Part shown: positions 16,101-19,100 of the stretch, one piece after another
Layout: the number at the start of each line of letters is the position of its first letter
How positions within the stretch are numbered: the first letter of the stretch is position 1
IMG/VR virus record: IMGVR_UViG_2877274432_000013
Reading direction: 5' to 3' (one strand)
From: a virus
Taxonomy: Duplodnaviria; Heunggongvirae; Uroviricota; Caudoviricetes
DNA length: 48,880 nucleotides
Program-made: the position numbers

Positions 16101-19100
16101 CGTTAGTCACCGTGACAGGGCCAAGCATCGTCGCGGTGCCGCCGCTTTCGCCCATCCCCTGAGAGAGATTCCCGTTTATTGTCACGTTGCCGTTTAGCGT
16201 GATGGTGGGTGATGTGATCGTGGTTCCTCCTTCTGCTGTCGCCGTCAACGCGCCGGGAGTTTTAACCGTGATATTATGGCCTGCGGTCACTTCCACAAAC
16301 GCAGCGCCATCATCAGTACGCAGTTGCGCGGCGCTGGTGCTGATTCCGCTGATTTTCTGCGCCTGAGACTGCGGACCGACGATACAGAACGCATCCGATA
16401 AATCATGCATTCTGTCATCGACCGGTTCCTGTATTCCGCCGCTCTGCCACCAGAAATCAATACAACGATCGGCAAAAACGACAAGACACTCATCCCCGGC
16501 TTTAATCGGAAACGTTAGCGTACATCCTCCGCCACGTGGGAATACCACTGGAACATCCACCAGCAATGGGTAATTTTTGGTAATGCGGTTGCCGTCATTA
16601 TCCTTTTCAACCGAACGGATAGCAGGCTGCACAACCGCCGTCACCGCATCAGGATCGAATGACTGAATAATGCCAGGCAAGGCGACTCGGATCTGGTTCT
16701 TTGTTGTTTCCCGTTCAGATTTGAATGTTTCAGCAAGGTCGCCGCTGCGGGTCTGGTCAGATACTGCCATTTAGTAGGCTCCAGAAAGCAAAAAACCCGC
16801 CGGGTGGCGGGTTTATGAATCGTAGGTTTTCAATTTTTCGAGTTCATCAGGAGGAAGTTCTATGAAGGTTTCCTCTGCTAATTTTATCAGCCGGGGAAGC
16901 ATCGAATCAGCTTGCTGATGAGCGTTTGGGCTGATGATTGCCAATATCTGATAGTGTTCATCGATATAAAGATGCTGAGCATATACCAAAAAATTATCAC
17001 ATGTCCGTTCACTCAGAGATGCTTCTGGAGGCCAGGGTTTATCGCCAGGTAGCTTTAAGTGAATTTTCCTGATGTTGGCAGCCATCGCATCATAGTTACG
17101 TTCAAAACCGCCTAACGAACCAAAACACCAGAACTGGGAACCCTTTGAAATATAATCGGCAAGCATTTGAGCATACTTATGTGCTGCAGCTAAATGACGC
17201 AATTCTCCCGTGATACTGACTTTTGCCATGTCACATCCATTTAGGGGCGTTGGCTCCCAGCATCTTATGCGATGTTGAGATCAGTTCAATAGCCTCTTCA
17301 CGGGTAACATTATCTGACAAGAGTTCAGCCTGGAAAGGCTGCGATTGCCTAACTTCAGCGGCCAACTGAGTTGCAGTGTTCTCGACGGCGGTCAACGCAC
17401 GAACATATTTGCGTTTTAATGGGCGCAACATTTGCAGATGGCCTTGCCACATAGGGGACCTTTCCGCTTCAGAGAACATATCCACTAAATGTCCTTTAGC
17501 ATTTCGGCATGCCTTGGCAAGACCTTCGAGATGGGATAAAAACTCTTCCGGAAGCTCATCAACAATGATTCTCCCATTTCGAAAAGCTTCGAGATGAGAC
17601 ATGCCTTCCTTCGCGGTATTTTCGATTTCTTGAGCGCGTGCAGCAATCGCGGTACAACGACGAAATACCTCTTCAGCATCTAATCGTTGTGGCAGTTCAC
17701 AAGCATTAGAGATCAGGGGTTTGAAAGCACCGTTAACAGCTTCCTGAACCTGATTCATTTGTTGTGTAATTGTTGCCAGCGCAAATGCGTAGCTAATCGC
17801 CATACCCAATCCCTCTGTCGTTTTAAACGACTATACACCACTTATTCAAAGTTAGCTGAGCGCTAAAAGTTCGCAAAGTTTAGTGATCATGCAACCACCT
17901 AGCAAGCGATAAAAAATCATTATTTAGTGAATGTGAACAAACTCAACACTATGCAGAAATGTAACTTTTGGTTAACCATCAACCTTTTTACACGGGAAGG
18001 AGCCGATGATTTTCGGTGCATCCATGCTGTTCTGCAGAAGCTGGACGTTCAGGAAACGCGTTTCGGTACCAGGGCGACGAATGAACTCGAAACCGTAATT
18101 GTTACCGTCTTTGGCAGGCATAATCCCCATGTCTACTTTCAAACCATTGGTACCCAGTTCGGTGATTTTTTGAGAGGTAACTCTTTCACCGTTGATTGTC
18201 GATAACTCGCCCTGGTTTGCAACCATAGTGTAGCCACCGCATTTAACCGTGAAGCCATCCGCCCACACGCTGCACGCAGAAAAGACAGCTAACAGAAAAA
18301 TGATACCCCTCATTGCTCATCCCCTTTGCAAAGCCGATTGCGTATACAGATCCGCCGCGCCACGCGCTTCGCACATCATATCCATGTACCACGCCTGGCC
18401 CCTTGTGTCGCCAGTGTACATAATCCCGCGCACAATATAAACGCCATCCGTTGCGATGCTGGCAGGCTGTGATGTGGTGCCGCTGAGCGTAATATTTCCG
18501 TCCGTGTTCTGGTCGGTGATCTGCCCACCAGCCATAGCGATATCGTTGTTCGACAACACGGTGCGATATACGGAAGCCTGATCCAGCTGAATAAGCCCGT
18601 TAACCCGGATGTTCGGATTAATAAGAGCGCGGACGTTTACGCCGTTACCGATAGTCTGCTGCGGCATGCCGATAAGCCCGGTGGCGCTGTTGAGCACAAT
18701 CGCGTCGTGAACATACTCGTTATTCGCCACCATCTGGCGCTGACCGTCCACAAATTGCCATGTTGCGCCACATTGTCCGGCCACGTTATCCATAAGATGC
18801 CGTGTCATGCCGAACAGCACCCGCCCTCGAGGGTATACGGTAGCAGGCATTTCAGGCGTCAGTCCTTCGGTCGCGCCTTTGGCCTCAAAGTCTTTCATCA
18901 GCGCACGGTTCACATCTGCGACCGTGTAACCGGCAGCCAGCGTCTGTGAGGTTATACTGGTGGCAAATGCCAGATCAGTATCTGCTGCCTGAATCAGGAC
19001 GTAGGTATCAACCGGACTGTCTTTTCCTGTGACCGAGTAGCGAATTTCACCGCTGAAAATCAGTCCGTAGTTGCGGCCATCTCTCTGGCCCACGTCCGCC

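Follow-up and report, generated by a model that had tools for sequence, protein, structure and literature searches.

The 48,880-nucleotide (nt) virus record IMGVR_UViG_2877274432_000013 of IMG/VR, referred to here as the window, carries a prophage that is a SEN34/Brunovirus-like temperate myovirus with E. coli/Shigella as its host. Between the baseplate hub and spike genes of this prophage lie two adjoining genes, encoding a 190-amino-acid (aa) all-helical protein and a 138-aa protein of the YafO toxin family, which together with a promoter-like region and a leader make up a variable cargo of ~1.16 kb (~16815-17970, minus strand, as are all genes of the region). We read this module, with a probability of roughly 0.6, as a self-promoted type II-like toxin–antitoxin moron with a new antitoxin family that probably serves lysogen defence and/or prophage retention. 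It is read as a moron because of its low G+C content, its conserved promoter-like region and leader, the precise breakpoints that bound it and the alternative cargo found in the same slot. The YafO label of the toxin in RefSeq was already known; the large helical partner family and the delimited slot are new, and a literature search found no paper describing the 190-aa/138-aa pair.

The second gene of the pair (16813-17229, minus strand) encodes the 138-aa protein, which matched the Pfam profile PF13957 (YafO_toxin) with E=4e-17 and 62.6 bits (gathering cut-off 25) over profile positions 12-98 of 101. Identical proteins in RefSeq are labelled YafO family toxin, and their partner is labelled hypothetical. 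Comparison with K-12 YafO revealed 25% identity (E=5e-7) and conservation of H57, R75, T76, P101, H104 and E119, and the score of 31.4 bits against the YafO equivalog model (NCBIfam PRK09885) fell below its cut-off of 153; by sequence, the protein is a distinct clade of the YafO family and not the orthologue of K-12 YafO. The predicted model showed a RelE/HigB-like fold of the RelE/ParE (BECR) type, and together with the profile score it bears out an earlier, preliminary description of this stretch in which the last gene was called YafO-like. The toxin shares this predicted fold with HigB, HigB2, YafQ and RelE but, unlike these toxins of ~90-115 aa, it owes its length of 138 aa to an additional helix at the N terminus and a long one at the C terminus, and it shows no detectable sequence similarity to solved chains, the search of the PDB with its sequence having returned zero matches to any of them. 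A PDB search also indicated that YafO itself is without a solved structure. We predict that the 138-aa protein is an mRNA endoribonuclease of the YafO/RelE type, belonging to the RelE/ParE superfamily.

The first gene (17231-17803, minus strand) encodes the 190-aa partner, for which no significant Pfam, NCBIfam or PADLOC match was obtained, the only assignment being to a PHROG of unknown function, phrog_35514. Its profile gave no significant match in the PDB, BFVD likewise held no relative and no similarity to YafN was detected, in agreement with the preliminary description of a partner of about 190 aa that, unlike YafN, belongs to no recognisable family. A Pfam match to EAD5 below the cut-off (E=0.003) was seen in 1 of 28 family members and was taken as chance. 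The AlphaFold2 model (predicted local distance difference test score, 77.7) consists of four long helices (residues 3-31, 43-75, 86-115 and 123-154), after which come a linker of low confidence (155-167), a short helix (168-181) and a conserved tail; the flexible linker, located before the C-terminal helix, is reminiscent of the tails with which other antitoxins wrap their toxins. Fold searches with this model retrieved generic helical bundles only, with pyocin Ripcord as one among thousands. Residues conserved in at least 95% of 38 distinct partners are A113 and W119 in the turn between the third and fourth helices (H3–H4), L137, I175, S178 and H179 of the C-terminal helix and W189 of the tail, and in distant members the N-terminal bundle is far more divergent than the C-terminal motif. 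A word-indexed search of 5.8 billion proteins yielded 34 clusters of relatives, with Enterobacterales as the source of all clusters that carry an organism name, and when 1.84 billion representative proteins were searched exhaustively with an HMMER profile, 15 relatives only were found. We consider the 190-aa protein a putative antitoxin that founds a new family.

Analysis of gene neighbourhoods revealed a constant association of the two genes. Both were present in 68 of the 68 loci examined, with the partner directly upstream, and no orphan toxin without a partner was seen. In IMG/VR, the partner immediately preceded the toxin clade in 51/51 loci with a 1-nt spacer in the 46 that were measured exactly, the spacing of the other five, Serratia-type loci being approximate only; in the window, the TGA stop codon of the 190-aa ORF (open reading frame; 17231-17233) is followed by one spacer base and then by the 138-aa ORF. 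Siphovirus tail modules contain partners with 48-54% identity, on one or the other side of the tape-measure gene, and 1 nt beyond each of them begins a PF13957 gene (137-138 aa); in Serratia, where the toxins have 50% identity, the gene ahead of the toxin encodes a 192-aa protein that shares 35% identity with the partner. Even the three weakest partner profile matches (E ~1e-4), located respectively with transposase and HNH genes, with CI-like and Cro-like repressor genes and on a short contig holding the pair only, are each followed by a PF13957 gene, and it is because of this adjoining gene that we accept such marginal matches as true relatives. No third conserved gene travelled with the pair in the loci inspected (siphovirus tail modules and the contexts of distant relatives). 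Adjacent, co-oriented, tightly coupled and co-inherited, the two genes have the layout of a type II toxin–antitoxin system.

The same data bear on the possibility that the 190-aa protein is not an antitoxin but a sensor, adaptor, regulator or co-effector, with the toxin restrained by low expression or auto-inhibition. Such a role would suit a protein whose size and fold are unusual for an antitoxin, which has no known antitoxin domain and whose distant members diverge far more in the N-terminal bundle than in the C-terminal motif, and the conserved leader palindromes described below could serve a separate regulator. However, antitoxin–toxin pairs of the YafO family are classically arranged in this way, with the partner upstream, the toxin downstream and the two genes overlapping or 1 nt apart (PMC11980606), and neither a third conserved gene nor an orphan toxin came to light in the loci surveyed, so we rate this alternative as improbable.

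Further support for an antitoxin comes from the way the two proteins evolve. Among 45 distinct pairs drawn from 68 loci, the distances between partners closely follow those between toxins (matrix correlation r=0.98, a value reached in 0/999 permutations). The partner was more divergent than the toxin in 89% of comparisons, and antitoxins are usually the more divergent protein of a pair. In the canonical YafO clade, a 95-97-aa Phd/YefM-type (PF02604-type) gene lies upstream of the toxin gene and is kept down to 48% identity; because canonical YafO clades keep this gene and the present clade has the 190-aa partner instead, the module is, at the level of gene content, an antitoxin swap within the YafO family. 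Like the K-12 yafNO system (YafN/YafO, type II), it combines a PF13957 toxin carrying the conserved His, Arg, Thr, Pro and Glu positions with a gene in the antitoxin position that comes first and is tightly coupled. Unlike yafNO, it has a 190-aa helical bundle in place of the 97-aa Phd/YefM-type YafN and resides in a prophage cargo slot rather than in the SOS (LexA)-regulated dinB operon, and no LexA-box-like site (CTGT-N8-ACAG, at most 1 mismatch) was found upstream of the pair in 17804-17971.

Comparison with prophages carrying other cargo defined the mobile unit. Homology extends from the spike gene to 16813-16816 and is found again from 17969-17982, at the stop codon of a 113-aa signal-peptide ORF (17972-18313, minus strand), the breakpoints being drawn against loci L002-L004 and L020-L023. 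Over ~16750-18100 the G+C content is 0.41-0.48, against 0.50-0.58 on either side. An intrinsic-terminator-like hairpin with a T-run (16793-16814, minus strand; 9-bp stem with 6 G-C pairs) follows the toxin gene, and in L021 and L023, despite their unrelated cargo, an identical hairpin is found equally far from the spike gene. Because the breakpoints exclude both the 113-aa gene and the terminator, and because both occur beside unrelated cargo, these elements are backbone, and the mobile unit, as judged from the homology breakpoints, is the two genes at ~16815-17970. The preliminary description had presented a three-gene cassette with its own terminator, made of a secreted protein, the 190-aa protein and the toxin. 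All of these features are present, including the AT-rich gap and the 1-nt junction, but the unit comprises two genes, and the secreted protein that had been placed in it is a conserved backbone gene found with other cargo as well.

The 113-aa gene begins 3 nt past the hub stop codon, matches phrog_3443 (E=3e-47) and bears the RefSeq name STY1065/STY2022 family. All of its alleles encode an AxA-type signal peptide and two conserved Cys residues in the mature part, and they are 54-77% identical, with a highly variable N-terminal half of the mature protein and a nearly invariant C-terminal half that includes the two Cys (L020-L023, L002, L004 and L027-L046). Superinfection exclusion is a conceivable role for such a periplasmic or secreted protein, whose gene lies within a baseplate operon. 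The gene is adjacent to the pair and on the same strand in the window, which might suggest that its product acts with the toxin pair as a three-gene unit. Against this, it adjoins the hub gene beside at least five unrelated cargos (DUF4282, DUF2335, a 243+142-aa pair, a 176-aa protein and a 266-aa protein) and is missing near the pair in 29/51 viral loci, namely 25 without a hub or spike homologue and four with a distant hub and spike; moreover, its alleles are 54-69% identical where the toxin pair is 97-100% identical, and the cargo breakpoint falls on its stop codon. A functional unit of three genes is therefore hardly credible. A 113-aa BamE-like gene near the copy of the pair in the siphovirus Flyfo proved unrelated to the 113-aa protein of the window.

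The slot is anchored on the right by the baseplate hub gene (18317-19378, minus strand; 353 aa), which matches phrog_196 baseplate hub (E=1e-89) and the NCBIfam family orf58_phage_fam and is conserved backbone, with 88-97% nucleotide identity to E. coli prophages carrying other cargo (L020-L023). The left-hand anchor, likewise backbone, is the membrane-puncturing spike gene (16015-16770, minus strand; 251 aa), identified by a Pfam N-terminal spike domain (E=2e-44), an Apex motif and TIGR01644 (phage_P2_V). Whatever the cargo variant, the strong hairpin at 16793-16814 lies directly upstream of the spike gene; late transcripts must consequently either continue past it to reach the spike and distal baseplate genes or be initiated anew beyond it.

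In 5426 complete E. coli genomes, the 1.7-kb interval was matched in 336, mostly via its backbone flanks, and the two-gene cargo was present in 37, always with at least 98.4% identity; the pair is absent from the other ~300 matching genomes. The cargo was found in 1 of 50,697 phage records. Among hub/spike copies, the pair is 97-100% identical where the adjoining 113-aa and spike genes fall to 54-72%, and because it is near-identical where its neighbours have diverged, this pattern indicates that the pair was recently exchanged between mosaic backbones. In IMG/VR, 26/51 toxin loci lie beside hub and/or spike homologues and 25/51 do not.

This distribution also speaks to the reading that the proteins are virion-associated, either as a tail or baseplate accessory or as an injected effector with its chaperone, as in contractile injection systems. 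That idea draws on the location of the pair, which lies between hub and spike in the window and close to the tape-measure gene in siphoviruses. Structural genes would be expected to keep their presence and position in related tail modules, and the pair does neither, being patchy, missing from ~300/336 E. coli prophages that share the backbone, and found outside tail modules in a CI/Cro immunity region and in a transposase/HNH region. Its G+C content is low and it comes with a promoter-like region of its own, the toxin fold is that of cytoplasmic toxin–antitoxin-type ribonucleases (RNases), and the partner is tied to structural proteins by generic helical fold matches only. Because the pair also occurs outside tail modules, we conclude that the proteins are not baseplate parts, and a virion-associated role is very improbable. 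Among the outcomes that the preliminary description had itself named as contrary to its proposal were identity of the proteins as baseplate components and universality of the cassette in related tail modules; neither of these was seen, the latter given its presence in 37/336 backbone-bearing genomes.

Other prophages carry different, uncharacterised cargo in the slot (L021 1336-2495 of E. coli 09A19CPO009, L004, L022, L023, L020 and L002). The occupants include an overlapping pair of 243-aa and 142-aa proteins, a DUF2335 membrane protein, a DUF4282 protein and a 176-aa predicted membrane protein, and further a 266-aa protein in Yersinia phage YP3 and an unrelated 170-aa protein in phage vB_EcoM-606R2. 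In phage SEN34, the 138-aa product SEN34_21 occupies the same slot and was ruled out as a toxin relative, being unrelated in sequence, and SEN34_20 was ruled out as a small antitoxin, being a shortened copy of the 113-aa backbone gene. The slot resembles the P2/P4 anti-phage hot spots and tail-operon morons in its conserved flanks, sharp breakpoints and alternative small gene sets, and in cargo with its own promoter-like region and lower G+C content; it differs from the P2/P4 hot spots in belonging to another phage group, in its hub-to-spike position and in having no cargo that matches a known defence model. By analogy with these sites, the hub–spike slot may have a defence role.

Several observations concern neighbouring parts of the prophage and its relatives. 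SEN34 has an additional 45-aa ORF, SEN34_23, between the spike and sheath-initiator genes (L003 2091-2228), at a junction that in the window is an overlapping stop-start, a hint that the tail module has another small site of insertion. In E. coli TUM1880 (L001 13342-13701, 12644-13237), insertion of ISVsa5 (IS4-like) truncates the DUF3383 (sheath-like) gene, so that this prophage copy is defective, yet its toxin pair is intact. In Shigella flexneri 1a strain 0228 (NZ_CP012733.1, locus L083, with which L034 was grouped), the proteins are 100% identical to those of the window over the 6.4-kb hub-to-spike stretch compared, and the locus lies on a circular record of 41,686 bp that has been classed as a non-mobilizable plasmid. 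This suggests that an excised or episomal circle of the phage had been captured and that the phage is probably active.

Inspection of the non-coding gap between the 113-aa and 190-aa ORFs (17804-17971) revealed the elements that could drive and control the pair. A candidate sigma-70 promoter (17877-17905, minus strand) comprises a -35 element TTGCTA (17905-17900), a 17-nt spacer and a -10 element TAAACT (17882-17877), and a second promoter-like site, TTGAGT-16-AATAAT, is present at 17946-17919. The promoter and leader are shared at the nucleotide level with copies whose proteins are 59-73% identical (upstream regions of L005, L006, L012 and L016 compared), the TTGCTA-17-TAAACT of the window aligning with TTGAAG/TTGAAA-17-TACACT of other copies with protein identities of 35-73%. 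The leader contains two inverted repeats. The first, TTAGC-N5-GCTAA (17852-17866, minus strand), is replaced elsewhere by CTAGC/GCTAG and TTTATC/GATAAA, with compensatory change of both sides in 2/5 pairs, and it folds weakly as RNA (-3.1 kcal/mol); because it folds so weakly, it is no less likely to be a DNA operator than an RNA hairpin. The second, GTCGTTTAAAACGAC (17831-17817, minus strand), abuts the Shine-Dalgarno sequence AGAGGG (17816-17811) and has GTCGA-N3/4-TCGAC variants at the same place in other copies. In copies from Pantoea and Serratia, repeat 2 gives way to a G+C-rich terminator-like hairpin with a T-run; placed after the promoter-like site and ahead of the start codon, this hairpin may act as an attenuator. 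A search of Rfam across 16500-18500 returned nothing credible. Both RefSeq and the Shine-Dalgarno spacing (7 nt after AGAGGG) favour ATG 17803 as the start of the 190-aa ORF; the alternative start chosen by the ORF finder, TTG 17809, would give 192 aa. The conserved leader palindromes lie downstream of the -10 element and may be sites of autoregulation of the module, but no known DNA-binding fold is seen in the partner.

We propose that in the lysogen a single transcript would supply both the 190-aa and the 138-aa protein, and that the former would bind and neutralise the RNase, presumably through the H3–H4 turn (A113, W119) and the tethered C-terminal helix and tail (I175, S178, H179, W189). 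Loss, titration or displacement of the partner would leave free toxin to cleave mRNA and halt translation. By analogy with other prophage cargo, the toxin might be set free when a superinfecting phage shuts off the host or when the prophage is lost, and the benefit would be protection of the lysogen by a form of abortive infection, prophage retention or both. Toxicity, direct neutralisation and any defence phenotype are inferred here, and a role as an anti-phage or addiction module is plausible.

A number of results weigh against this proposal. The partner is about twice the usual antitoxin size and has, according to its model and the fold search, no known DNA-binding fold, unlike most type II antitoxins. 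The candidate promoter matches the consensus at 8/12 positions. The correlation between partner and toxin distances is inflated, whatever the function of the pair, because adjacent genes are co-inherited. The cassette proteins have no significant match in PADLOC-DB 2.0.0, the only hit at E up to 1 being a non-significant one of Cas7_IIId to the 190-aa protein (E=0.019), and the alternative cargos matched no PADLOC defence model either, their sole hint being a non-significant HEPN match (E=0.009) for the 243-aa and 142-aa pair; because neither the cassette nor the other cargos match these models, the slot is not a demonstrated defence hot spot. Finally, K-12 YafO is a comparatively weak toxin whose ribosome dependence has been questioned (PMC8546651).

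The lack of PADLOC matches also fits a narrower version of the proposal, in which the same toxin and protein antitoxin mechanism acts as a purely selfish addiction or stabilisation module with no anti-phage function. So do the rarity of the pair (37/5426 E. coli genomes and 1/50,697 phage records), its near-identity across mosaic backbones, as expected for a recently spreading element, and the occurrence of the same phage as a 41.7-kb circular record filed as a plasmid, a form in which post-segregational killing would pay. The computed data do not separate addiction from defence, but the slot holds alternative small accessory genes, predicted membrane proteins among them, as prophage defence hot spots do, and we consider a purely selfish function unlikely, though well worth keeping in view. 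The toxin–antitoxin moron could conversely be extended to a more specific defence system. CapRel-SJ46 is a toxin–antitoxin defence system with a sensing antitoxin, built as one fused protein with a different type of toxin. The present module resembles it in being phage-borne and toxin–antitoxin-like and in having a neutralising element of unusual size, which might also sense a trigger, and differs from it in showing no homology and in consisting of two separate proteins. More speculatively, then, the 190-aa protein might be a sensor antitoxin without a DNA-binding module, whose four-helix bundle would detect an invading-phage protein or the infection state and whose C-terminal helix and Trp tail would release the RNase, in an abortive-infection system unique to Enterobacterales prophages; we regard this as a tentative idea with the odds well against it.

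New antitoxin partners for known toxin families turn up regularly, and the genomic support for the one described here is good. YafO is among the least understood toxins of the RelE superfamily, and a phage-borne YafO clade with an unrelated helical partner offers a clean natural example of an antitoxin swap and a new antitoxin family to characterise. The hub–spike slot of SEN34-like prophages is now sharply bounded and can be mined for accessory or defence functions. If the module is indeed a defence system, YafO-based abortive infection would join the known repertoire.

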